Positions 6,799 to 19,405 of a DNA stretch of 28,133 nt are shown one piece after another (positions within the stretch are counted from its first letter, which is position 1; every line of letters starts with the position of its first letter). A program made the translations under genes and the position numbers. The notes under the pieces are model-generated. The model did not search any database. It was given only the letters and a program-made list of their open reading frames with translations, and had not been told where the DNA came from. This DNA is from an uncultured Aquifex sp. (GTDB lineage Bacteria; Aquificota; Aquificia; Aquificales; QOAS01): NCBI GenBank assembly GCA_964571355.1, contig CAZNBH010000001.1, positions 1 through 28,133 on the forward strand, in the 5' to 3' direction.

Positions 6799-7458
6799 TT
6801 AGGGTTTTGGCAAAACCATCCCAAAGCCGTCGATATTTTTCAATCCCAAACCGGTTTCGGAAATGAATTTCAACACCTCCCTCGGGGCGAAAACTTCAAA
6901 ATTCCCCGTAAGGGATTGTAGAGCCCTACCCTTAAAGTTTAGAGGTTTTACCCCGACCTCGAGAGGTTTTATTTCGAGCTTTTCCTCCAAGGGTTTCCCG
7001 TAATAGCTTTGGTACTTTTTGCGGATGTTTTCGACGAGAAACTCCGAAAGGTTCACACCTTCGGGAACCAATACGGGGGAAAGGGTTTTTAATTGAATAA
7101 CCTCGTCGGGAATTTTTACAAAAACCCTCTCCACCGAGAGGATATCGACATCGGTATCTCCCAACCGTAGGTTTTCCTCGAATATCAACCTATTCCTCAA
7201 AGGGGTAAGCTCGCAATCCCTTGGGGTGGCGAAGTAGACCCTAAAGTAGGGGTGGAAATAGAGAAAATTTCCCTCCCTTTTTAGGAACTTTCCAAAAATC
7301 CTCGAAAAGGTAAAGAAGTGGTAAACCTTCCCCTCCGAGGAGCGGGTGGCTATGCACTCCTCAAAAACCTCAAGGAGGAAATTCTTGAGGATACCGTTGT
7401 ACCTTCGGGGGATTTTTAGAGCTTCACCCCTTGCCCTAAAAAGGATTTTTAAAATCAA
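6799..7458 (-). CDS. cas6: Cas6-family RAMP protein, orphan
   Basis: C-terminal G-rich loop TGLGLKNIDGFGMV, FTFSR, KTLSPV and NIRKKY are typical of Cas6. TTG start with an AGGGGT SD-like site upstream. Confidence 0.8.
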   Translation of the reverse strand: MILKILFRARGEALKIPRRYNGILKNFLLEVFEECIATRSSEGKVYHFFTFSRIFGKFLKREGNFLYFHPYFRVYFATPRDCELTPLRNRLIFEENLRLGDTDVDILSVERVFVKIPDEVIQLKTLSPVLVPEGVNLSEFLVENIRKKYQSYYGKPLEEKLEIKPLEVGVKPLNFKGRALQSLTGNFEVFAPREVLKFISETGLGLKNIDGFGMVLPKP

Positions 7459-7913: not shown

Positions 7914-8699
7914 ATGTTAAGAGCTCTTTGGACCGCCGCCACCGGCATGACCGCCCAGCAGGAGAACATCGACGTTATCGCCAACAACATAGCCAACGTC
8001 AATACCACAGGCTATAAAAAAATGAGGGCTGCCTTTCAGGATTTGCTCTATCAAGAAGTGGAACAGCCGGGGGTTCCCACCTCCGACACCACCCAAAATC
8101 CGACCGGAACCCAAATAGGATTGGGAACCCGCATCGCGGGCACCTACGGGATTTTTACCCAAGGAAATCTGATAAAGACCGATAGACAGCTCGACGTTGC
8201 GATAGAGGGGGATGGTTTCTTTAAAGTGCTCCTTCCCGACGGAACCGAAGCCTATACGAGGGACGGAAACTTTAAACTCGATAGGGATGGGAGAATAGTC
8301 ACCTCCGACGGCTATCCCCTATCACCCCAGATAACCGTTCCGTCCAACGCCGTACAAATATCGATTTCCCCCGACGGGAAGGTAGTAGCCATCTTGGACG
8401 ACAACACCACCACCGAGTTGGGTAGGATAACTTTAACCAAGTTCATCAATCCCGCCGGTTTGAAGAGGATAGGGAATAACCTCTATTTAAAAACCGACGC
8501 CTCGGGAGACCCTATAGAGGCTAACCCCGGAACCCAGGGGCTTGGGGTTTTGAGGCAGGGCTTTTTGGAAGCCTCCAACGTCGATATAGTCGAGGAGATG
8601 ATAAACTTAATTACCGCCCAGAGGGCTTACGAGTTCAATGCAAAAGCTATCCGTGCCGGCGATGAAATGCTTAAAACCGTTGCCAACCTACGCCCTTAG
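7914..8699 (+). CDS. flgG: Flagellar distal rod protein FlgG
   Basis: [12 protein letters not shown]...[21 protein letters not shown] and [27 protein letters not shown]; 261 aa. Confidence 0.95.
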
Positions 8700-9165
8700 T
8701 TTTTTTCTTCTTTTAATACCCTTGTCGGTCTTTTCTTTTGAAATAACCAAAAAAGAGCTTGAAAAAATAGCCTGTTCCCAGTTGAGGAACCTATACTCGA
8801 ATGTAACCTGCAAGGGGATTATCTTTTACGGAAACCGTCTCAAGTTGGAGGGTGAAGGGTACCTCTTTATGGTAAAAAAATCGGGGAATTCCTTCCTCCT
8901 CGAGGTGGTAGACCCGAAAACTCTAAAACCGGTGAGGGTAATACCGATAAAAACCGATTCCACTACGGGGGAAAATCGAAAAAAAGGAATCCCTTACGGG
9001 AAAAAGGTAAAGGTTATTTTCATCAACGGGAACATAAGGATAGAAACGGACGGCGTAGTGGTGGGAAAAGGTTATAGCGATAACACCGTAAAGGTGAAGG
9101 TGGGTAAAAAATACTTTGTAGGAGTTTTACAAAATGAGGATACCGTTGTTGTTAGGCTTTATTAG
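8662..9165 (+). CDS. flgA: Short FlgA-like P-ring assembly chaperone
   Basis: Lies between flgG and flgH. Has a signal peptide ([18 protein letters not shown]) and a C-terminus [33 protein letters not shown] resembling the FlgA C-domain. Confidence 0.6.
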
Positions 9166-9832
9166 TTTGTCCTTTCTTTTTGGGTGCGCCCCACCGGAGC
9201 AAAACCTCCCTCCCCTCAACAAGGATAAAGCCTATACCGACTACGAGAAAACCGTAACAACCCCAAACCCTTATAGGGAACAACCCACCCAGGCGAGTTG
9301 GGGAAACTCCCTTTACAGCGACCGTTTCAACCTTTACAGCGACGTTAAGGCTTATAAGCGGGGAGATATTGTTTACATAATCGTTTACGAGAGTATAGAC
9401 GCCATTCAAAAATTGGCAACCCAAACCGGTCAACAACATCAGGTAAACAATGCTGTAAGTTCCTTTTTCGGGGTTCACCCCGCTACTTTGAGGAATTTGG
9501 GGGTAAACTGGCAATACCAATCGGGGTCCAAATACAGCGGAACCACCCAACAGAGCGGAATCTTGACAACCCGCCTTGCGGCTTATGTTAAAAAGGTTTA
9601 TCCCAACGGGAACCTATTAATAGAGGCGGTTAGATATATAAGGATTAACGAGGCAGGTCACAAGATAATCCTACGGGGAATAGTTAGGCCCGAGGATATA
9701 GGTCCCGATAACTCGGTTCCCTCCTCGAGGATAGCCAACCTCGAAATCATTTATAACGGCAAGGGATATATGGTAGACGCCTCCTCACCCGGTTGGTTTA
9801 CCCGCTTCTTATCCAAAATTTGGCCTTTTTAA
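9134..9832 (+). CDS. flgH: Flagellar L-ring lipoprotein FlgH
   Basis: Lipobox LFGC, LYSDVKAYKRGDIVYI, VYPNGNLLIEA, LRGIVRPEDI and GWFTRFLSKIWPF. Confidence 0.93.
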   Translation: MRIPLLLGFISLSFLFGCAPPEQNLPPLNKDKAYTDYEKTVTTPNPYREQPTQASWGNSLYSDRFNLYSDVKAYKRGDIVYIIVYESIDAIQKLATQTGQQHQVNNAVSSFFGVHPATLRNLGVNWQYQSGSKYSGTTQQSGILTTRLAAYVKKVYPNGNLLIEAVRYIRINEAGHKIILRGIVRPEDIGPDNSVPSSRIANLEIIYNGKGYMVDASSPGWFTRFLSKIWPF

Positions 9833-9939
9833 TTTTAGCAAACTTTTTCTGCGATTTTCCTTATCCTTTTATTTGAAATCCATTTCCACGATATAGCAAT
9901 ATAGGCTTTTAAAGAAAACTTAACAAAAGGGGGATTAAA

Positions 9940-10281
9940 ATGTTGGTAGCCTTTATAGTATTTGTAGTAGCCCTTATAGCTACCGTTGTCCTCTTTTGGC
10001 TTATTGCCCTCCTATACGCCCCTAAGGGTGATTCTGTCGCAAAACACGTTCCCTACGAATGTGCGGTTCCTCCCGAAGGTCCTATGCCTAAAAAATCCAA
10101 CTTTAGGTATTACTTCTTTGGAATTTTGTTCCTCGCAATGGATATGGTCGGAATGTTTATAGCTTTGGAAGTAATAACTAATGGAAAAAACCTATGGATT
10201 TATTTACTCTTTGTAATACCCCTACTCATCGCCATCTGGCACATCATAGGAGGTAAAAGGTATGTTGACCAAGTTTCTTGA
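9940..10281 (+). CDS. nuoA: Complex I-like subunit A (NuoA/FpoA)
   Basis: Three TM helices, loop PYECAVPP and FRYYFFGILFLAMD. Confidence 0.85.
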   Translation: MLVAFIVFVVALIATVVLFWLIALLYAPKGDSVAKHVPYECAVPPEGPMPKKSNFRYYFFGILFLAMDMVGMFIALEVITNGKNLWIYLLFVIPLLIAIWHIIGGKRYVDQVS

Positions 10282-10792
10282 TTTCTTCGGATGGGCAAGG
10301 GCAAACAGCCCGTGGATGGTTCACTACTGCTCGGGCTGTTGCTCTTTGGAAATATTGGCATTGATGGGACCCCGTTTTGACTGGGAGCGTTACGGTTTTC
10401 TCCCCGTTCCCTCGCCGAGGCAAGCCGACTTTATAGTTATAACCGGTTTGATATCCCGTAAAGTTTTGCCCGTTCTATTGATGACCTACGACCAAATGCC
10501 AAAACCCCGTTATGTTTTTGCCATAGGGGCGTGCGCCTTTGACGGAGGTCCTTACTATGACTCCACTTCGGTGGTTACCAACGTTCCCGAAATATTGCCC
10601 CCCGATGTATTTGTAGCCGGATGCCCTCCCACCCCCGAAGCTATTTTGGAAGGTCTATTGGAAATGAAAAAGATAATCCGCGAAAAGAGGGAGGCGAGGG
10701 CCGAAAAGGAAGGCACTTGGAGGGAAATCTTAAAGCAGGAACTCGAAAAGAATCCCTTACTATCGCAACAACCTTTCTTCGTAGGCGGTTAA
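10262..10792 (+). CDS. nuoB: Complex I-like Fe-S subunit B (NuoB / hydrogenase small-subunit family)
   Basis: CSGCCSLE, SPRQADFIVITG, QMPKPRYVFAIGACA and DVFVAGCPPTPEA. Confidence 0.92.
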   Translation: MLTKFLDFFGWARANSPWMVHYCSGCCSLEILALMGPRFDWERYGFLPVPSPRQADFIVITGLISRKVLPVLLMTYDQMPKPRYVFAIGACAFDGGPYYDSTSVVTNVPEILPPDVFVAGCPPTPEAILEGLLEMKKIIREKREARAEKEGTWREILKQELEKNPLLSQQPFFVGG

Positions 10793-10855
10793 ATCTTGAC
10801 AACCTCGGCGGGTTCTTTTTTATCTTATTTTCAATTTTTCCCACGGAGGAGTTAA

Positions 10856-11320
10856 ATGGGCTTCGAAGGTTTTGCCAAGCTTATGAAAACCTATTTTGGG
10901 ATAGAGGGTAAAGAATACCCCCAAAATAGGGTTGCAAAAACCTATCTATTCGAAATACAACCGCAGCATATCAGAGAAGTTGCAAAACTTTTAAAGGAAC
11001 AGGGATTTGTTTTTTTCCATACCTTGGCACCGGTGGATTATTCCCCCAAGGGGAGGGGTTTGGAGCTCAATTACTTCTTTGAAAACCCCGAAGAGGAAAT
11101 TTGGGTTTTAATAAGGACCGAAATCCCTTTGGAGAATCCCGAAATAGACTCCATTCACGACATCTTTCCCGCCCTCGAGGCCTGCGAAAGGGAGGAGTGG
11201 GAAAAGTTTGGAATTCAGTTTAAAGGTCATCCGAGACTTAAACCGATGCTCTTGGACGACACCCTCCAAGGGAAGTGGGTTCAGAGAAAGGCTTACATTC
11301 CCGAACCCCATAGAAAGTAA
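10856..11320 (+). CDS. nuoC: Complex I-like subunit C (NuoC)
   Basis: ELNYFF, IDSIHDIFP and CEREEWEKFGIQFKGHPRL; GGAGGA SD. Confidence 0.88.
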   Translation: MGFEGFAKLMKTYFGIEGKEYPQNRVAKTYLFEIQPQHIREVAKLLKEQGFVFFHTLAPVDYSPKGRGLELNYFFENPEEEIWVLIRTEIPLENPEIDSIHDIFPALEACEREEWEKFGIQFKGHPRLKPMLLDDTLQGKWVQRKAYIPEPHRK

Positions 11321-11331
11321 GGAGGTCGGTT

Positions 11332-12459
11332 ATGTACAAAGGTGCACAGATAATAACGCAAGAAATAGGTCGCGAAGGGGACTTAATGGTCCTCAACTGG
11401 GGTGTTCAGCACCCCGCCTCGGGACCTATGAGGATTAAAGTATGGCTCGACGGGGAGACCATAGTTAAAGTTGAAAACGACCCCGGCTACGTTACCCGCA
11501 ATCTCGAAAAGTTACTCGAATACCGAACCTGGGAAAATGCGGTGGTAAACGTCGAAAGGATTTGCTTTATAGATGACCTCGGAACGATTTTAAACTGGGC
11601 TCTGGCGGTGGAAAAGTTGGCGGAGGTAGAAGTTCCCAAAAATGTTCAATACTTCAGGGTAATCCTTGCAGAGGTGGGGAGGATAGTTTCCCACCTTATA
11701 GGAATAGGTGGTATGTTCGGAGCCCTGGGGGTTGCAACCCCCATGATGTGGGTATTGGCTTTAAGGGAATATTTCCTCGATTTCCTCGAACACTACTCCG
11801 GTTATAGGATTTCCACCGCCGCCATAGTGCCCGGTGGTGTGAGGTTTGAACCCACCAAGGAGGATTTTGAACTCCTCAAAAAGGCTATAGAGGAAACCGA
11901 AAGGCGCTGGCCCGAATACAAAGAGGTGTTTAAAGATAACCCCACCCTTGTGGAGAGGTACAAAGGTGTTGGAGTAATCCCTAAGGAGTTGGTTTATGAA
12001 CTAGGGCTTAGGGGACCCGTTGCAAGGGCTTCCGGTGTCGATTACGACCTTAGGAAAAAGTACCCCTATAGCTCCTACGAGGATTTCGAGTTTAACGTAA
12101 TCGTAAAAGAGGAGGGGGACGCCTACGCGAGATTTCTCGTAGTTCTCGAGGAAATAGAGGAATCACTAAAAATCATTAAGCAGGCTTTGGAAGGTATGCC
12201 CGAAGGGGATAAATGGAAGGTGAGGATGCCCAAGAAGGTAAAAGCCGGAGAAGCCTATTCCGCTGTCGAATGGGCGAGGGGAGGAATGGAGTACTTCGTT
12301 GTAAGCGACGGCGGAACGGGTCCTTATAGGGTAAAAATTTCTGCACCGTCCTTTATGAATATTTGGGCATTGGAAAAAATAGCACCGGGACATAAATTGG
12401 CCGACCTCGCCGCTATATTCGCAAGCCTTTACATTTGCCACGGAGACCTCGATAGATAA
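11332..12459 (+). CDS. nuoD: Complex I-like subunit D (NuoD/FpoD/MbsL family; not a four-Cys NiFe subunit)
   Basis: NWGVQHP, ERICFIDD, VPGGVR, GPVARASGVDYDLRK, EGDAYAR, SDGGTGPYRVKI and C-terminal ICHGDLDR. Confidence 0.92.
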   Translation: MYKGAQIITQEIGREGDLMVLNWGVQHPASGPMRIKVWLDGETIVKVENDPGYVTRNLEKLLEYRTWENAVVNVERICFIDDLGTILNWALAVEKLAEVEVPKNVQYFRVILAEVGRIVSHLIGIGGMFGALGVATPMMWVLALREYFLDFLEHYSGYRISTAAIVPGGVRFEPTKEDFELLKKAIEETERRWPEYKEVFKDNPTLVERYKGVGVIPKELVYELGLRGPVARASGVDYDLRKKYPYSSYEDFEFNVIVKEEGDAYARFLVVLEEIEESLKIIKQALEGMPEGDKWKVRMPKKVKAGEAYSAVEWARGGMEYFVVSDGGTGPYRVKISAPSFMNIWALEKIAPGHKLADLAAIFASLYICHGDLDR

Positions 12460-12472
12460 AGGAGGGGCAGTT

Positions 12473-13429
12473 ATGGAACAAATCAACTGGGGTTGGATTT
12501 TGTTTAAAACCCTTGTGTTTCCCGGGGTAACTTTCCTCCTACTGGTAATCTTTGCAACTTTTTACCTCGAGAGGAAGCTCGTCGCCGACATGCACGGTAG
12601 AACGGGACCTTACTACGTAGGCCCTTACGGAATACTCCAAACGGTTGCCGATATCTTCAAAATCCTCCAAAAGGAAGTAATAATTCACAGGGATGCCGAT
12701 AAGTTTCTATTCCTAATAGTTCCCGCCGTTGCGTTCCTTATGGTTGCCCTTGTAGCCGCCTTTATTCCCTACGACGAAAACCTCTGGATAGTATCGACAC
12801 CGTATGACCTCGTCATCTCGTTGGCACTCCTTACATCGCTACCTGCAATTTTCCTATTTGCGGGATGGGTTTCTAGGAGTAAATACCCCTTCATAGGTGG
12901 GATTAGGGTTATAAACCAGCTAATTTCCGGGGAAATTCCTTTATGGCTGGCGGGATTGTCGGTAGCGTTGTGGTATGGAACCTTTAACTATTTGGAAATC
13001 GTTCATAAATTCGACCTAATAGGCTTTCTGGTAAATCTTGTAGGCTTCGCAATCTTTTTAGTGGCTATTCTTATAGTTGCCGATAGACCTCCCTTCGATA
13101 TTCCCGAAGCGGAACAGGAAATTGTTTACGGGTTCCTAACCGAGTATACAGGGGTTGGTTATCTCCTATTGGCGGGTGCTAAATTCCTCGAAGTTTTCGT
13201 ATTGGCGGCTATGACCGTTACCCTCTTCTTGGGTGGATTTAAAGGTCCTTTTCTTCCCGGATGGGTATGGTTTTTGATAAAGGTATTTGCGGTTTACTAC
13301 CTGGCATTCGCCATTAGGGCTTCTACCCCACGGATTAGGCTCGACCAACTGATAAGGTTTACCTGGATTGTATTGGTTCCTTTAGCGTTGTTAAACATCG
13401 TTTTGATACTCTTAATCAAAGCACTTTAA
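12473..13429 (+). CDS. nuoH: Complex I-like subunit H (NuoH)
   Basis: YLERK...GRTGP, DIFKILQKE and RPPFDIPEAEQE...TEYTG; about 8 TM. Confidence 0.93.
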   Translation: MEQINWGWILFKTLVFPGVTFLLLVIFATFYLERKLVADMHGRTGPYYVGPYGILQTVADIFKILQKEVIIHRDADKFLFLIVPAVAFLMVALVAAFIPYDENLWIVSTPYDLVISLALLTSLPAIFLFAGWVSRSKYPFIGGIRVINQLISGEIPLWLAGLSVALWYGTFNYLEIVHKFDLIGFLVNLVGFAIFLVAILIVADRPPFDIPEAEQEIVYGFLTEYTGVGYLLLAGAKFLEVFVLAAMTVTLFLGGFKGPFLPGWVWFLIKVFAVYYLAFAIRASTPRIRLDQLIRFTWIVLVPLALLNIVLILLIKAL

Positions 13430-13441
13430 AGGAGGTTTAAT

Positions 13442-13900
13442 ATGCTTGGAAGGGTTCTGGAAAAAATAGTTTTAGTAGCAACTAGGGCTGCAAAGCCCAA
13501 AGATACCACTTACATACACGATAAGGATAAAAGACCGGAAAAACCCCAACGTTTTAGGGGAAGGCACGTTATAAACGCAGAAACCTGTATAGGTTGTTAC
13601 GCCTGCGAGAGGGCCTGCCCTATAGGGGCGATTATTATGGTTCCCACCGGATTGAAAAGACCCCGCGCTATGCCGGTTGTTAATTTGGGAAGGTGTTGTT
13701 TTTGCGGACTTTGCGAGGACGCTTGTCCGACCAAGGAGAAATCGATATACCTAACGGAGGATTACGAAATTATGGTTGAAGAAATAGAGCTTACACCTTT
13801 GTTGGACGAGTTATGGGCAAAACCTATAGGGGATATAACCAAAAATCCCCTTGTTATAAAGGATTTACAAAAGGCTAAGGAAAAGAAGGAGGGTAAATAA
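13442..13900 (+). CDS. nuoI: Complex I-like 2x[4Fe-4S] subunit I (NuoI)
   Basis: FRGRH, CIGCYACERACP and CCFCGLCEDACP. Confidence 0.92.
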   Translation: MLGRVLEKIVLVATRAAKPKDTTYIHDKDKRPEKPQRFRGRHVINAETCIGCYACERACPIGAIIMVPTGLKRPRAMPVVNLGRCCFCGLCEDACPTKEKSIYLTEDYEIMVEEIELTPLLDELWAKPIGDITKNPLVIKDLQKAKEKKEGK

Positions 13901-14382
13901 TGCTCCTTTATTTCCTTATATTGTTTACTGTAGTAATAGCCACCGCCGTAGCGGCAATAGAGTTGAACAACCTCATTTGGGTATTGGTGGCATTTGCAAC
14001 CCTTTTAACCGAAATAGCCCTTTTCTATTTCTCCCTCGGTTTTCCCCTGTTGGGGGCTTTTCAATTGGCGGTTTACGCCGGTGGTGTTGCCATACTGGTG
14101 TTATTCGCAATTCTAACCATCGGAGAAAGGGAAGAGGAAAAGAGGGAAAGCAAACTTGCGGCGGGTGTTGCCATAGCCACCTTTATAACCGGACTGATAG
14201 CCTCCATTTGGGCGGGAATCCATACGAAGCCTTACCTCGATATTTCTCTAAAGGAATTGGGTGAGGTTTTTGTGGACAAATATGCCATTCTGGTAATTCC
14301 TTTGGGTTTTACGGCTGTAGGTATCATTTACGGGGCTTATTACTTGCTCGCCAAGAAATTGCAAAAGGAGGAGAGGGAATGA
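13900..14382 (+). CDS. nuoJ: Complex I-like subunit J (NuoJ)
   Basis: Five TM helices, QLAVYAGGVAIL; coupled to nuoI by a TAATG overlap. Confidence 0.85.
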   Translation: MLLYFLILFTVVIATAVAAIELNNLIWVLVAFATLLTEIALFYFSLGFPLLGAFQLAVYAGGVAILVLFAILTIGEREEEKRESKLAAGVAIATFITGLIASIWAGIHTKPYLDISLKELGEVFVDKYAILVIPLGFTAVGIIYGAYYLLAKKLQKEERE

Positions 14383-14690
14383 AGTTCACCCACGAACCGA
14401 TGCTTTGGTTTTTGTTGGTTGCAATTTCCTTAATGGCAATAGGTATCTACGGACTCCTATCGAGGAAATCTATCTTAAAAATGATTATTTCGATAGAGAT
14501 AATCGTAAACGGGGCAAATGTAGGTCTTGCCGCCTTTGCAACCCAACACGGAGCCGACGGGGTTATACTCGCATTTTTTGCAATAGCGCTTGCGGCCTTA
14601 GAGGTAGCGGTAGGTTTGACATTGCTAATTATCCTTGCCCGTAAATATGGTATTACCTTCCCCGAAAAATTAAACAACTTGAGGTGGTAG
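14379..14690 (+). CDS. nuoK: Complex I-like subunit K (NuoK)
   Basis: IGIYGLL, SIEIIVNG and ALEVAVGL (both conserved Glu). Confidence 0.9.
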   Translation: MKFTHEPMLWFLLVAISLMAIGIYGLLSRKSILKMIISIEIIVNGANVGLAAFATQHGADGVILAFFAIALAALEVAVGLTLLIILARKYGITFPEKLNNLRW

Positions 14691-14692
14691 GG

Positions 14693-16525
14693 ATGGAGAG
14701 CCTAATCTACCTATCGGTATTACTACCGATTTTTGGCGCGCCGTTGGTTTGGGCGATAAGCCATTACACCAACAAGTGGTATTCGTGGTACTTATCCCTT
14801 GCCATTACCGGTTTATCTGCCCTTATCGCCTTGGCAACCGTAATCGGTGTAGCCTCCGGTCATATCTATCAGCACTCCTTTACGTGGTTTGAATTCGGAA
14901 ACGTAAAAGTCCCCTTCGGGATTTATGTGGACGGTGTTAGCGCCGTTGTCTATTCCATGGCCGCCCTACTCGGGTTCCTCATAGTTATGTACTCCCGCGG
15001 TTATATGGAGCACGACGAAAGTCCCCATAGGTTCTTTATGAAGGTAACCTTTTTTATCGGCTCTATGCTCGGTCTGACCGTATCGGATAACCTCCTCGGG
15101 ATGTTTATCTTCTGGGAATTCATGGGATTGGCATCTTATCTCCTAATCTCCTACTGGTATTACAGGGAAGCTCCGGCGGCCGCGGGATTGAAAGCCTTTT
15201 TAATGACTAAATTCGCCGATGGCTTCTTCCTTGCGGGGATAATCCTCCTGTGGTGGTATGCCGGAACGCTAAACGTTCCCGAAATAAACCATTTGGCGGA
15301 AACCGCCGCTATACCCGTGATTATTGCCGCAATATCCGCGTTGCTAATGTTCGGCGGAGCTATCGGTAAATCGGCTCAGTTCCCCCTATTCCCATGGCTA
15401 CTGGACGCTATGGAAGGTCCCACTCCGGTGTCGGCATTAATCCACGCCGCAACTATGGTTAACGCCGGGGTGTTTTTGGTGGGCAGGCTCTTCGATTTCT
15501 ACGCCTACTCCAAAGTTCTTTACGTTATCCTCGCGATAGGTGCTCTTTCCGCTTTTATAGCAGTTCTCGGCGCAATGGTTCATAGAGAAATCAAGAAGAT
15601 TATCGCCTTCTCCACCATGGAAAACCTCGGTCTGATGTTTGTTGGTTTGGGAGCCGGTTCACTTGCGGCTGGTCTCTTCCACCTGGTATCCCACGCCACC
15701 TTTAAGGCTTTAATGTTCCTATCGGCGGGTAACGTTATCCACTTCACCCACGAAAAGGATGCGTTCAAACTCCGCGGTCTTATGAAGGTAATGCCCTATA
15801 CCGCAATCCTATTCCTAATAGCCGTGCTATCCCTATCGGGTATTCCCCCTCTAAGTGGATTCTTCTCCAAAGAGTGGATAGTTCACGAGGCAAAAGAGGC
15901 GGGAGACCCTATAGCCTTTGCGTTTGTTCTAACCGCAGCGGTTCTAACTATCTACTACGGCTTTAGGTTGTGGTTCCAAATTTTTACCGGTGAACCCAAT
16001 GAAAAAGCCAAACACGCAAGGGAAGCCTACCCCATAATGTTGATTCCTCTATTTGTATTGGCAACTTTAACCTTCCTTGTGGGTATATTCCATCAACCTA
16101 TAATCCATCTAATAGAGGAACACGCCCACATACCCCACGATTGGGCTTTCACCGCATTGATATTCTCGCTTATGGCTATCGCGTTTGGATTGGCATGGTT
16201 GATTTACTACAAGAGGGCAATCAATACCGAAGAGCTCTTAAAGGACCCTATAATGGCGGTATTGAACAAAACCTTCTATAACGCCTTTTTCGTAGACCAC
16301 ATCCTAAGGTGGCTTTCGAAGAATTTCGTTGTGGAATTCCTCGCATGGTTGGCCCACTGGATAGACCGTAACGTTTACGATTACATCGTCAACGGGGTTG
16401 CCAAAACCGCACTTTGGACTTGGGAAAAGGTTCGTGTTATCCAAACCGGTAACTTAATCCATTACCTAACCATATTCGTTAGTGGTGCGGTAATTCTTTA
16501 CTACCTCTACCTCGTAATACTTTAA
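14693..16525 (+). CDS. nuoL: Complex I-like antiporter subunit L (NuoL)
   Basis: WEFMGLASYLL and GKSAQFPLFPWLLDAMEGPTPVSALIHAATMV, with a long C-terminal helix and final TM. ATG 14693 is preferred over GTG 14684. Confidence 0.93.
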   Translation: MESLIYLSVLLPIFGAPLVWAISHYTNKWYSWYLSLAITGLSALIALATVIGVASGHIYQHSFTWFEFGNVKVPFGIYVDGVSAVVYSMAALLGFLIVMYSRGYMEHDESPHRFFMKVTFFIGSMLGLTVSDNLLGMFIFWEFMGLASYLLISYWYYREAPAAAGLKAFLMTKFADGFFLAGIILLWWYAGTLNVPEINHLAETAAIPVIIAAISALLMFGGAIGKSAQFPLFPWLLDAMEGPTPVSALIHAATMVNAGVFLVGRLFDFYAYSKVLYVILAIGALSAFIAVLGAMVHREIKKIIAFSTMENLGLMFVGLGAGSLAAGLFHLVSHATFKALMFLSAGNVIHFTHEKDAFKLRGLMKVMPYTAILFLIAVLSLSGIPPLSGFFSKEWIVHEAKEAGDPIAFAFVLTAAVLTIYYGFRLWFQIFTGEPNEKAKHAREAYPIMLIPLFVLATLTFLVGIFHQPIIHLIEEHAHIPHDWAFTALIFSLMAIAFGLAWLIYYKRAINTEELLKDPIMAVLNKTFYNAFFVDHILRWLSKNFVVEFLAWLAHWIDRNVYDYIVNGVAKTALWTWEKVRVIQTGNLIHYLTIFVSGAVILYYLYLVIL

Positions 16526-16538
16526 AGGGGGAAGGAAA

Positions 16539-17972
16539 ATGTTGCTAAGTGCGATTTTAATTCCCGTTTTGCTCGCCCCTTTTGCCTATTTCTTCGATAG
16601 GTGGGCAAGATATATATCCCTTGCGGCGGCAATATTCGTAACCTTTGTAGGGGCTTATTTATGGTTTAACTATCCCGGTCAGGGTTTCGCATTTCAGGAG
16701 TTTTATCCGATACTCCCTCAGTGGGATTTTAACCTTCACCTCGGTGTAGATGCCCTTTCGATAGCCCTTATAACCTTGACCGGAATAATCGCAATACTCG
16801 TAACCCTCTCCTCTTGGAATGTGGAACGGGCAGGGGCTTACTTCTTCCTAATCCTCGTATTCCTCGGTGCTATGGTCGGTGTTTTCGCATCGCTAAACTA
16901 CCTGTGGTTTTTCATCTTTTGGGAATTTACCCTCGTTCCCATGTTTTTCCACATAGGGATTTGGGGTGCGGAAAACAGGATTTACGCGGCTGTTAAGTTT
17001 TTCCTATACACCCACCTTGCATCCATATTTATCTTTTTGGCCATTCTCATTATCTTCGTAAACACCGGTCATTTCGATTTCCTCGCCATTAAGCAGGCCA
17101 ACCTACCTATAGATTTGCAAAAAATTATTTGGGCTTTGGCCTTTGTCGGATATATCGTAAAAATGCCCGTTGTTCCCTTCCACACCTGGCTACCCGATGC
17201 CCACGTTCAGGCACCCTCCCCGATTTCGGTAATCCTGGCCGGTTTGCTCCTAAAAATGGGAGCTTACGGTTTGCTCCGTTGGAATATAGAACTCTTTCCC
17301 GAAGCTTCCAAGCATTTCATCTACTTAATGCTTGCCATAGGTTTGCTCACGGTATTCCACGCCGCCTTTAAAGCTCTATACGAGGACCACGTTAAAAGAA
17401 TGGTTGCTTACTCTTCCATCAACCATATGGGTTTAGTCTTGGTGGCATTGGCAACCCTTTCGGCGGTTGGAATAAGTGCAGCCATTTACGAGATGGTAGC
17501 CCACGCCCTAATCATTTCCCTAATGTTTATGATTGCGGGATATATCCACCATATAACCGGAACCTGGTACATCTCCCAAATAGGGGGAGGTTTGTTAAGG
17601 AAGTTTCCCTTTATAGGTACCCTCTATATGCTCGGAGCATTGGGTGCTTTAGGATTTCCCGGAACCGCCGGTTTTATTGGTGAGGTAACCGCTATTTATG
17701 CGGCCTTTGACAAATTCGGTTGGATAGCCTTAGCACTACCTTTCTCCGCGGTATTAACCGCTGGATTCTTCTTCTGGGCTATCAGAAGGATGCTGCACGG
17801 GGAACCCTCCGAATTGGTTAAAAACTTGCATTCCCATCCCCTCCCGGTGGTCGAAAGAATTCCCCTAATGGCTTATGTTGTGCTATTTGTATTGCTCGGC
17901 ATAGTTCCCTCTATACTTTTCGGCTTCATCAATAGCTACGCCAACACCTTAGGAAAAGTATTGGGAGGTTAA
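16539..17972 (+). CDS. nuoM: Complex I-like antiporter subunit M (NuoM)
   Basis: FWEFTLVP, VKMPVVPFHTWLPDAHVQAP, LLKMGAYG and GFIGEV. Confidence 0.93.
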   Translation: MLLSAILIPVLLAPFAYFFDRWARYISLAAAIFVTFVGAYLWFNYPGQGFAFQEFYPILPQWDFNLHLGVDALSIALITLTGIIAILVTLSSWNVERAGAYFFLILVFLGAMVGVFASLNYLWFFIFWEFTLVPMFFHIGIWGAENRIYAAVKFFLYTHLASIFIFLAILIIFVNTGHFDFLAIKQANLPIDLQKIIWALAFVGYIVKMPVVPFHTWLPDAHVQAPSPISVILAGLLLKMGAYGLLRWNIELFPEASKHFIYLMLAIGLLTVFHAAFKALYEDHVKRMVAYSSINHMGLVLVALATLSAVGISAAIYEMVAHALIISLMFMIAGYIHHITGTWYISQIGGGLLRKFPFIGTLYMLGALGALGFPGTAGFIGEVTAIYAAFDKFGWIALALPFSAVLTAGFFFWAIRRMLHGEPSELVKNLHSHPLPVVERIPLMAYVVLFVLLGIVPSILFGFINSYANTLGKVLGG

Positions 17973-17974
17973 CG

Positions 17975-19405
17975 ATGAACTGCGTAATATTCGGCGGAAT
18001 ACTAACCTTGGCCTTTGGAGGATTGTTGGTTCCCGTTATAGGGAACCTTTTTAAACTTTCCCGTTCTTGGCTTCTAAATCTCTATATGGTGGTATTCCTC
18101 ATAGCGGGTCTTTTGTTCCTATACGGTTTTAACCACGGGTCGTTACTGTATCCCAACCTCTTTACAACCGATACGGTTGCCTATCTACTAACCTTATTCG
18201 TTTGGTTTACCGGTGCGGTGGTTCTAATAACGATATTCAACACTTTGAAGGAAATCGAAAATCTTGCGGAAATACTCGGGGTTTATACCATATCCCTTGC
18301 GGGAGCTATTTTGACCCTTTACGCTTCCAATTTCGTTTCGTTCCTCGTCGCTATGGAACTTATGACCATTCCCTCCTACTACCTAATAATGGCAAGGCTT
18401 AACGCGATAACCGCGGAGGCGGCCACTAAATATTTCTTCAACGGAGCACTCTCCACCGGCTTTTTCCTATTCGGTATGTTGGTCATATACGCCCTAACGG
18501 GGTCTTTGGAATTCTCCAAGATTAACGAATTCTTTACCCAAGCCGATACGTTGAGCCTCCTATTTTTCGCCTTTGGATTCATAGGAATACTTTCCGCTAT
18601 AGGTTTTAAAATGTCCTTTGCGCCATACCACTTTTACGCACCCGACGTTTACACCGGTGCGCCCGCCTCCGTTGCGGCTTATCTTGCGGGAATTACCAAA
18701 AGTGCCGTAGCCGTACCGGTAATAAGGATATTCTTCGAAGCTCTGCAGTTTCAAAAGGCCGATTGGGCTATCCTACTCGCCATACTGGCGGTTATCACGA
18801 TGACCGTTGGAAACCTGTTGGCACTGGCCCAACAAAATGTTGCCCGTATACTCGCCTATTCGTCGATAGCCCACGCCGGTTATATCCTTGTGGGTTTTGC
18901 GGCTGCAGCCTCGAGCTTGGCCATTACCGGAATCGTTTACCAAGCCGTCGCCTACATATTGATGAAGGCGGGAGCCTTTCTCATAGTGACCCTACTGATT
19001 TACTACTACGGGATAAAAACCCGCCAAGAGTTAAGGGGTTTTGGAAAGGTTAACCCCTTTATGGCTCTGGTGTTCACCATATTGCTCCTCTCGCTTGCCG
19101 GTGTTCCTCCAACCGCCGGTTTTATAGCCAAGGTTTACCTCTTCCAAGCGGCCGTAGACGCCGGAATGGCTTGGTTGGCGTTTGTAGGGTTGCTAAACTC
19201 CGCCTTTGCGGTCGCCTACTACCTATGGATTATTAAAGAAATGTATCTCGAAGAGCCCCAAACCGTAAAAAAACCCTCCGATACGAGCTTTATAACCCCG
19301 ACTTTGGCAATAGGCTTGCTCGCCGTCCTATCGGTGATATTCGGAATTTGGGTAACCCCCGTGGTAAACGCATCTATAGCCTTTACCAACCTCTTTCCCT
19401 TTTAA
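17975..19405 (+). CDS. nuoN: Complex I-like antiporter subunit N (NuoN)
   Basis: MELMTIPSY, EAATKYF, GFKMSFAPYHFYAPDVYTGAP, LAYSSIAHAGY and SLAGVPPTAGFIAK. Confidence 0.93.
   Translation: MNCVIFGGILTLAFGGLLVPVIGNLFKLSRSWLLNLYMVVFLIAGLLFLYGFNHGSLLYPNLFTTDTVAYLLTLFVWFTGAVVLITIFNTLKEIENLAEILGVYTISLAGAILTLYASNFVSFLVAMELMTIPSYYLIMARLNAITAEAATKYFFNGALSTGFFLFGMLVIYALTGSLEFSKINEFFTQADTLSLLFFAFGFIGILSAIGFKMSFAPYHFYAPDVYTGAPASVAAYLAGITKSAVAVPVIRIFFEALQFQKADWAILLAILAVITMTVGNLLALAQQNVARILAYSSIAHAGYILVGFAAAASSLAITGIVYQAVAYILMKAGAFLIVTLLIYYYGIKTRQELRGFGKVNPFMALVFTILLLSLAGVPPTAGFIAKVYLFQAAVDAGMAWLAFVGLLNSAFAVAYYLWIIKEMYLEEPQTVKKPSDTSFITPTLAIGLLAVLSVIFGIWVTPVVNASIAFTNLFPF

Follow-up and report, generated by a model that had tools for sequence, protein, structure and literature searches.

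A NuoB subunit of the NUO11/NUO10 type with a hybrid five-cysteine motif in an uncultured Aquifex sp.

The proximal-cluster subunit of complex I, NuoB, binds to NuoD, and its cluster N2 is ligated by two adjacent cysteines in a strained arrangement. The canonical versions of this subunit (NuoB, PSST and Nqo6, as well as the cyanobacterial NdhK) have a tandem CC and two distal cysteines, a Gly or Ala three positions ahead of the pair, and a partner D subunit without relic cysteines of the NiFe site and with the residues H38, Y87, D139 and H169. A related arrangement was described for MBS: in its structure only C28, C93 and C123 of MbsJ ligate the proximal cluster, C25 is too distant, and the short loop (“three residues shorter”) leaves open the fourth iron, the one to which catalysis was assigned; mutants MbsJ C25A and MbsL C85A/C385A stay active, and C25A keeps polysulfide reductase activity (PMC7684303). 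The same findings on the proximal cluster are covered in a review (PMC8165549). The closest match to the operon discussed here comes from Desulfurobacteriales and Nautiliales, whose complexes of this kind were named “ancestral NUO11/NUO10” (Degli Esposti 2015; PMC4758237). The passages of that paper on these operons define them by NiFe cysteines 1 and 3 in subunit D (Thermus positions 86 and 403) and by the lack of H38, Y87 and D139, and place them on a branch near the mbx-like complexes; the same passages have Fpo as the place where the CC doublet “appears abruptly”, and draw the ancestral Nuo with a hydrogenase-type cluster. The Nautilia genome paper proposed reverse electron transport through the complex as a source of NAD(P)H (PMC2628731). 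A 2025 proteomics study of Desulfurobacterium took the operon as an ordinary NADH dehydrogenase, and reported that mbs is absent and the route of sulfur reduction unknown (PMC12724263).

The stretch of DNA analysed here (the window) comprises 28,133 nt of an uncultured Aquifex sp. (assembly GCA_964571355.1, contig CAZNBH010000001.1, forward strand). Its features relevant to this discussion are the following:

9940..19405, + strand: operon nuoA-B-C-D-H-I-J-K-L-M-N, 11 genes, without nuoE, nuoF and nuoG (ORFs, Pfam).
10262..10792, + strand: nuoB (P0001), second gene of the operon, encoding the proximal [4Fe-4S] subunit of 176 aa (translation, Pfam, HMMER).
10322..10351, + strand: motif H21-Y-C23-S-G-C26-C27-S-L-E30, or HYCSGCCSLE (clade conservation; AlphaFold loop).
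10328..10330, + strand: C23, the supernumerary cysteine, corresponding to MbsJ C25 and to the Gly of the canonical GLACC (gapless alignments).
10337..10342, + strand: tandem pair C26-C27, corresponding to C45/C46 of Nqo6; MbsJ has C28-G29 (alignments).
10532..10534, + strand: C91, predicted third cluster ligand, in IGACAF (invariant column).
10622..10624, + strand: C121, predicted fourth cluster ligand, in AGCPP (invariant column).
11332..12459, + strand: nuoD, 375 aa (HMMER alignments to Thermus Nqo4, 2fug_4, and to MbsL, 6u8y_L).
11563-11565, + strand: codon of NuoD C78, corresponding to MbsL C85, at Thermus D86.
12436-12438, + strand: codon of NuoD C369, corresponding to MbsL C385, at Thermus V403.
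13442..13900, + strand: nuoI, a ferredoxin-like subunit with 2x[4Fe-4S] (Pfam Fer4 families), which is the likely electron entry point since NuoEFG are absent.

Pfam matches were obtained for 10 of the 11 subunits, nuoC and nuoD are separate genes, and the order nuoA to nuoN is repeated in about 150 related loci. The start of nuoB and the end of nuoA share 20 nt, and a GGAGG stands 8 nt 5' of the nuoB ATG; a promoter and terminator scan of positions 9700-11000 gave nothing above shuffled expectation. With the published NUO11/NUO10 operons, as the cited passages describe them, the operon shares the gene order, the lack of nuoEFG, the NuoD residues (cysteines at Thermus 86 and 403; no H38, Y87 or D139) and the host groups, and by these characters it is assigned to the NUO11/NUO10 clade, which is found in Aquificota and in vent Campylobacterota. 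It differs from the published cases in its lineage, an uncultured Aquificales genus instead of Desulfurobacteriales or Nautiliales, in which C and D are encoded separately. The membrane arm sets the operon apart from MBS: the arm of MBS is of the Mrp type (MbsA-H') with MrpEFG-like genes, whereas the window's operon holds NuoA, J, K, L, M and N only, and no MrpEFG. An mbx-like operon taken for comparison (L190) has MNHE, MrpF and PhaG. Elsewhere in the window, positions 6799-7458 on the minus strand hold an ORF of 219 aa with a Gly-rich GFGMVLP end that looks like a lone Cas6-type protein.

NuoB belongs to Pfam family PF01058 (NuoB / PSST / Oxidored_q6; 87.7 bits against a cut-off of 27), and its matches in PDB are NdhK, PSST and Nqo6 at E-values of 1e-41 to 1e-32, with the best at 1e-41 to 1e-40. 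Translation bears out what the earlier note read from the DNA: HYCSGCCSLE with Cys codons at 10328, 10337 and 10340 plus one Cys each in GAC and GCPP, that is, a total of five cysteines in the protein (23, 26, 27, 91 and 121). The last 20 or so residues (157-176; positions 10730-10792) form a C-terminal tail that is shared by the close Aquificales relatives alone (P0002-P0004) and is modelled with low confidence; other NuoB proteins of the clade stop near residue 157.

By HMMER against solved structures C26 and C27 align with the adjacent cysteines of G[LT]ACC in mitochondrial PSST and in cyanobacterial NdhK, and together with C91 and C121 they fall without gaps on the four N2 ligands of both proteins. 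The alignment has no gap between about residues 3 and 135, and sets C23 opposite the Gly of G-L/T-A-C-C. NuoB has the tandem pair and the two distal cysteines of an N2 site at the canonical spacing, but three positions before the pair it has a Cys instead of the small residue (G or A) of canonical subunits; about 140 of 146 representative homologues carry G, A or E there. MbsJ (6u8y_J), read through a close MbsJ relative (P0160), has the sequence AFCTGCGGIE, and in the joint alignment, again gapless, its C25, C28 and G29 match C23, C26 and C27. Both proteins have the same loop length and the same C-x-G-C spacing; they differ at the C27 position, where MbsJ has a Gly and, as a result, a three-Cys cluster with an open catalytic iron. 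NuoB can be read as the layout of MbsJ plus C27, the residue that would complete the four-Cys set of the complex I type, and the alignment gives solid grounds for treating C23 as the homologue of MbsJ C25. The earlier note had given CTGCG for MbsJ and a tandem CC for complex I, both correctly (6u8y_J; PSST and NdhK), and its proposal that one protein carries both motifs, the C-x-G-C of MbsJ and the CC of complex I, agrees with the alignment.

The comparison with hydrogenases is less straightforward. Small subunits of the hydrogenase type (P0188 and the Ech-like proteins in genomes of the same genus) read W-x-x-H-[FY]-N-[ST]-G-S-C-N-G-C-D-I-E, and their loop between the H-Y and E anchors is 3 residues longer than that of NuoB, in line with the remark on loop length in the MBS paper (PMC7684303). 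NuoB shares with Group 4 (Ech/Mbh-type) [NiFe]-hydrogenases the W-x-x-H-Y anchor ahead of the loop, the I/L-E-I anchor behind it and two distal cysteines, and differs from them in that they have the longer loop (HYNTGSCNGCDIE), a CxxC without tandem pair, and four NiFe cysteines in the large subunit, of which NuoD has only two. With the Glu as anchor of the alignment, it is C27 and not C26 that faces the second Cys of the hydrogenases; since the hydrogenase loops are three residues longer, the homology of C23 with the first hydrogenase Cys is ambiguous. The O2-tolerant hydrogenases have a six-Cys [4Fe-3S] proximal cluster, with C-x-C-C and an extra Cys five residues after the third ligand. NuoB departs from the pattern so defined, with C-S-G-C-C, a Gly at residue 96 and five cysteines in total.

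Conservation of the motif was followed in several collections. A word-indexed search ranked 13 clusters as closest (58-97% identity); each of them has C[ST]GCCSLE, nearly all have five cysteines and one has six, and the later matches (at most 49% identity) read G/A-x-x-CC. An exhaustive HMMER search of 50%-identity representatives collapses the clade to one representative (P0011). Among database proteins P0122 (533 aa), with repeated NdhK-like segments and no CC, is probably an assembly or gene-call artefact. A scan of genome contigs yielded 107 related loci, in uncultured Aquificales (95-98% identity), Desulfurobacteriaceae, Nautiliaceae, Sulfurovum, Sulfurimonas, Nitratifractor, Thiovulum and a few Thiotrichales MAGs. 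The motif tally from genome loci (80/80) is partly circular, the motif itself being the retrieval pattern, and we therefore place weight on the HMMER-ranked lists and on an independent retrieval by patterns in the D subunit only, in which the loci that include the N-terminus of B were counted: C[ST]GCC is present in all 70 of these metagenome loci. The 117 unique B sequences of the clade diverge to about 56% identity, and in all of them the stretch from H21 to E30 is invariant except for positions 22 and 24. Invariant positions number 55 out of 145, and include H21, C23, G25, C26, C27, S28, L29, E30, C91 and C121. The codon of C23 is TGT in 141 cases and TGC in 10, and the adjoining codons vary synonymously. 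C23 is under purifying selection together with C78 and C369 of NuoD; its invariance implies some function, and the term relic alone does not explain it. The worry raised in the earlier note, that the first Cys might not be conserved in close homologues, does not apply to either the 117 sequences or the 70 loci.

The partner subunit departs from complex I in a consistent way. Relative to Thermus, NuoD has lost H38 by deletion (HPAS-GP), has F79 for Y87 and A131 for D139, and has S161/T162 for H169/H170 (positions 11812-11817; T162 is invariant in the clade). The two histidines of Thermus are the redox-Bohr residues adjoining cluster N2, so the electrostatic surroundings of the cluster differ from those in complex I too. 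MBS has the same two relic cysteines in its L subunit (C85/C385, equivalent to C78/C369) and no quinone His or Tyr. The two NiFe cysteines and the missing quinone residues in NuoD were found in 69 loci retrieved through B and in 77 retrieved through D, so that the expected co-occurrence of the B motif with two-Cys D subunits is seen in both directions. A comparison across lineages gave the following:

Clade of the window: B motif C[ST]GCC; two relic cysteines in D.
P0272/P0129 (B-C fusion, adjoining PaREP1/HEPN genes): B motif HYCIACC; two in D (DRFCFMD ... DYCPGDSDR).
Bacterial mbx-like operon (Mrp genes, rubrerythrin): B motif CTGCG; two in D.
P0125 lineage: B motif VTGCC; none in D.
Canonical Thermus: B motif GLACC; none in D.

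In every lineage checked, B has the upstream Cys when D has its two relic cysteines, and lacks it when D lacks them. The comparison covers lineages whose contigs reach D, which those of P0123 (CTGCC) are too short to do, and the operon at L189 is fragmented. P0272 and P0129 (loci L170 and L167) represent a second, distant CxxCC lineage with NuoB fused to NuoC, whose PaREP1 and HEPN neighbours hint at an archaeal (Thermoproteota-like) host.

The B tree (62 sequences) separates two groups with moderate support (90/80): the window's clade falls in one of them, together with the hydrogenase-type sequence, P0129/P0272 and the MbsJ-like sequences, and all canonical sequences fall in the other, along with P0123 (CTGCC) and P0125 (VTGCC). 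As CxxCC occurs on both sides of the central branch, the tree would allow CxxCC as the ancestral state of the complex I lineage. The D tree (19 sequences, Ech-rooted) does not settle how the hybrid, mbx-like, CIACC and canonical groups branch at depth, and comes with a long-branch warning. Within the clade the Aquificales group with Desulfurobacteriaceae. The operon is also carried by MAGs that bear the labels Thiotrichales, Piscirickettsiaceae or Francisella (L072, L073, L076 and L051); in the D tree their copy nests inside Campylobacterota, which points to horizontal transfer or mis-binning. The description of this NuoB as intermediate between MBS and complex I can be kept for its mosaic of character states (an MBS-like pocket, a four-Cys set of the complex I type and a three-antiporter arm). 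It cannot be kept as a branching order, for in the B tree the clade sits with the hydrogenases and MBS, and the D tree leaves the deep order unsettled.

An AlphaFold model of NuoB (mean pLDDT 78, and about 53-61 over residues 21-40) presents the motif as a loop between a strand (18-22) and a helix (28-34). Foldseek against PDB returned the same fold at TM 0.64-0.67 for PSST, NdhK, MbsJ and MbhJ alike, so the fold comparison does not discriminate between these families. From the alignments we consider it probable that the proximal cluster is an N2-like [4Fe-4S] cluster with four cysteine ligands, C26, C27, C91 and C121, and that C23 is a selected non-ligand like C25 of MbsJ. C27 would supply the fourth ligand that is missing in MBS, in a loop of equal length, and C23 would stand at the end of strand 1, three residues ahead of the pair, as a fifth, non-ligating Cys; its presumed distance from the cluster rests on the homology with MbsJ. 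Electrons probably enter from ferredoxin via NuoI, given the lack of NuoEFG, and would then pass through the proximal cluster to a pocket between B, D and H without the canonical quinone ligands, the reaction being coupled to the proton gradient by the three-antiporter arm. In an H2-oxidising host with the reverse TCA cycle the enzyme could run either way between ferredoxin and menaquinone. Menaquinone is no more than a plausible acceptor here, as the D pocket is devoid of H38, Y87, D139 and H169.

The genomic surroundings are of interest with respect to these functions. The MAG of the window (1.04 Mb, 85% complete) has one NuoD, one group 1 (uptake) NiFe hydrogenase, MqnA and MqnD for menaquinone synthesis, ATP-citrate lyase and two molybdopterin enzymes; neither NuoF (PF01512) nor Ech was found in this 85%-complete genome. 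In genomes of the same genus with a 98%-identical nuoB (L174 (G089:C58) and L001) an Ech-type group 4 NiFe hydrogenase lies directly upstream of nuoA (small subunit HYNTGSCNGCDIE; large subunit RVCGLC...DPCLSC), and the window holds flgG, flgA and flgH instead (7914-9832). One MAG each of Sulfurimonas, Sulfurovum and Thiotrichales carries the hybrid operon together with canonical NuoB genes (GLACC or GTACC), a Nautiliaceae MAG has it together with Ech- and Hyc-type hydrogenases, and a Desulfurobacteriaceae MAG has the hybrid operon only. The retention of the hybrid paralogue beside a canonical complex I is a sign of functional distinctness and counts in favour of our preferred reading.

Other roles for C23 have to be weighed against this one. 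The extra Cys might be a working ligand that swaps with C26 or C27 on reduction, or that carries a persulfide, as the earlier note had suggested. Such redox-dependent exchange would fit the strict invariance of C23, H21 and G25 in the face of synonymous codon turnover, and the position of C23 only three residues from the pair, in a loop that the model suggests is flexible; tandem ligation being strained, a nearby third Cys could matter during turnover, which is a point against our preferred reading. Dissociation of the tandem cysteines of complex I on reduction has also been considered (published discussion quoted in PMC7684303). We nevertheless regard ligand exchange as unlikely: MbsJ C25, at the same position, is too far away to ligate and its C25A mutant kept activity (PMC7684303), the loop has the length found in MbsJ and complex I and not that of the longer hydrogenase loop in which both cysteines of CxxC reach the cluster, and the presence of C27 should cap the iron that is open in MBS. 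That C23 is a neutral, lineage-specific substitution is extremely improbable. With 55 of 145 clade positions invariant, one invariant column is not extraordinary in itself, but this one is common to the copies from Aquificota, Campylobacterota and Thiotrichales, where both codons for Cys are used, and the Cys recurs in the second, distant lineage and in MbsJ-type proteins.

A different function is suggested by the pairing of the subunits: C23 of B with C78 and C369 of D, perhaps with H21 of B, could form a thiol/persulfide relay or a metal site separate from the cluster, in an enzyme that uses ferredoxin to reduce an acceptor other than quinone, such as sulfur or polysulfide. From lineage to lineage the three cysteines come and go as a set, the D pocket is devoid of H38, Y87 and D139 as it is in MBS, the hosts are H2 and sulfur organisms of vents, and the operon persists beside canonical complex I; furthermore, the route of sulfur reduction in Desulfurobacterium, where mbs is absent, is described as unknown (PMC12724263). 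On the other hand, the C25A and C85A/C385A mutants of MBS are active and catalysis there was assigned to the open iron, here presumably capped by C27. Many of the hosts (Sulfurimonas, Sulfurovum) are mainly sulfur oxidisers, and the genome of the window makes menaquinone and has molybdopterin enzymes that could be sulfur reductases. Taken together, a separate relay or metal site of this kind seems improbable to us. The fuller version, in which a three-thiol or metal site including H21 lies by a complex I-type cluster and the enzyme is a ferredoxin-linked, proton-pumping sulfur, polysulfide or other non-quinone reductase and a bacterial counterpart of MBS, we hold to be quite doubtful. If true, this widespread vent enzyme would be an MBS counterpart with a full three-antiporter arm, and might be the membrane sulfur reductase that is still missing for Desulfurobacteriaceae and Nautiliaceae.

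The enzyme clade has been known since 2015, yet nobody seems to have remarked on the hybrid motif with five cysteines, or on how strictly it is linked to the cysteines of D, as far as the cited passages of the 2015 paper and our searches go: a literature search on CxxCC returned only tetracysteine-tag papers and none on the motif in the context of complex I, and a preprint of 2025 on the mining of complex I says nothing about cysteines. Compared with NUO11/NUO10 as described in those passages, every member of the clade has the CC and in addition the extra upstream Cys, and the CC of the clade contradicts the statement made there on the first appearance of the doublet in Fpo (PMC4758237). The operon is routinely annotated as an ordinary NADH dehydrogenase in vent autotrophs. 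How the strained tandem-Cys ligation of N2 arose from the CxxC site of a hydrogenase is an open point in the evolution of complex I, and the clade represents a living state in which the tandem pair, the upstream Cys of the MBS type and two NiFe-relic cysteines in D are combined with a complete complex I membrane arm. Since cultured hosts exist (Desulfurobacterium, Thermovibrio, Nautilia), it offers a natural system for probing the roles of the doublet and of the relic cysteines.
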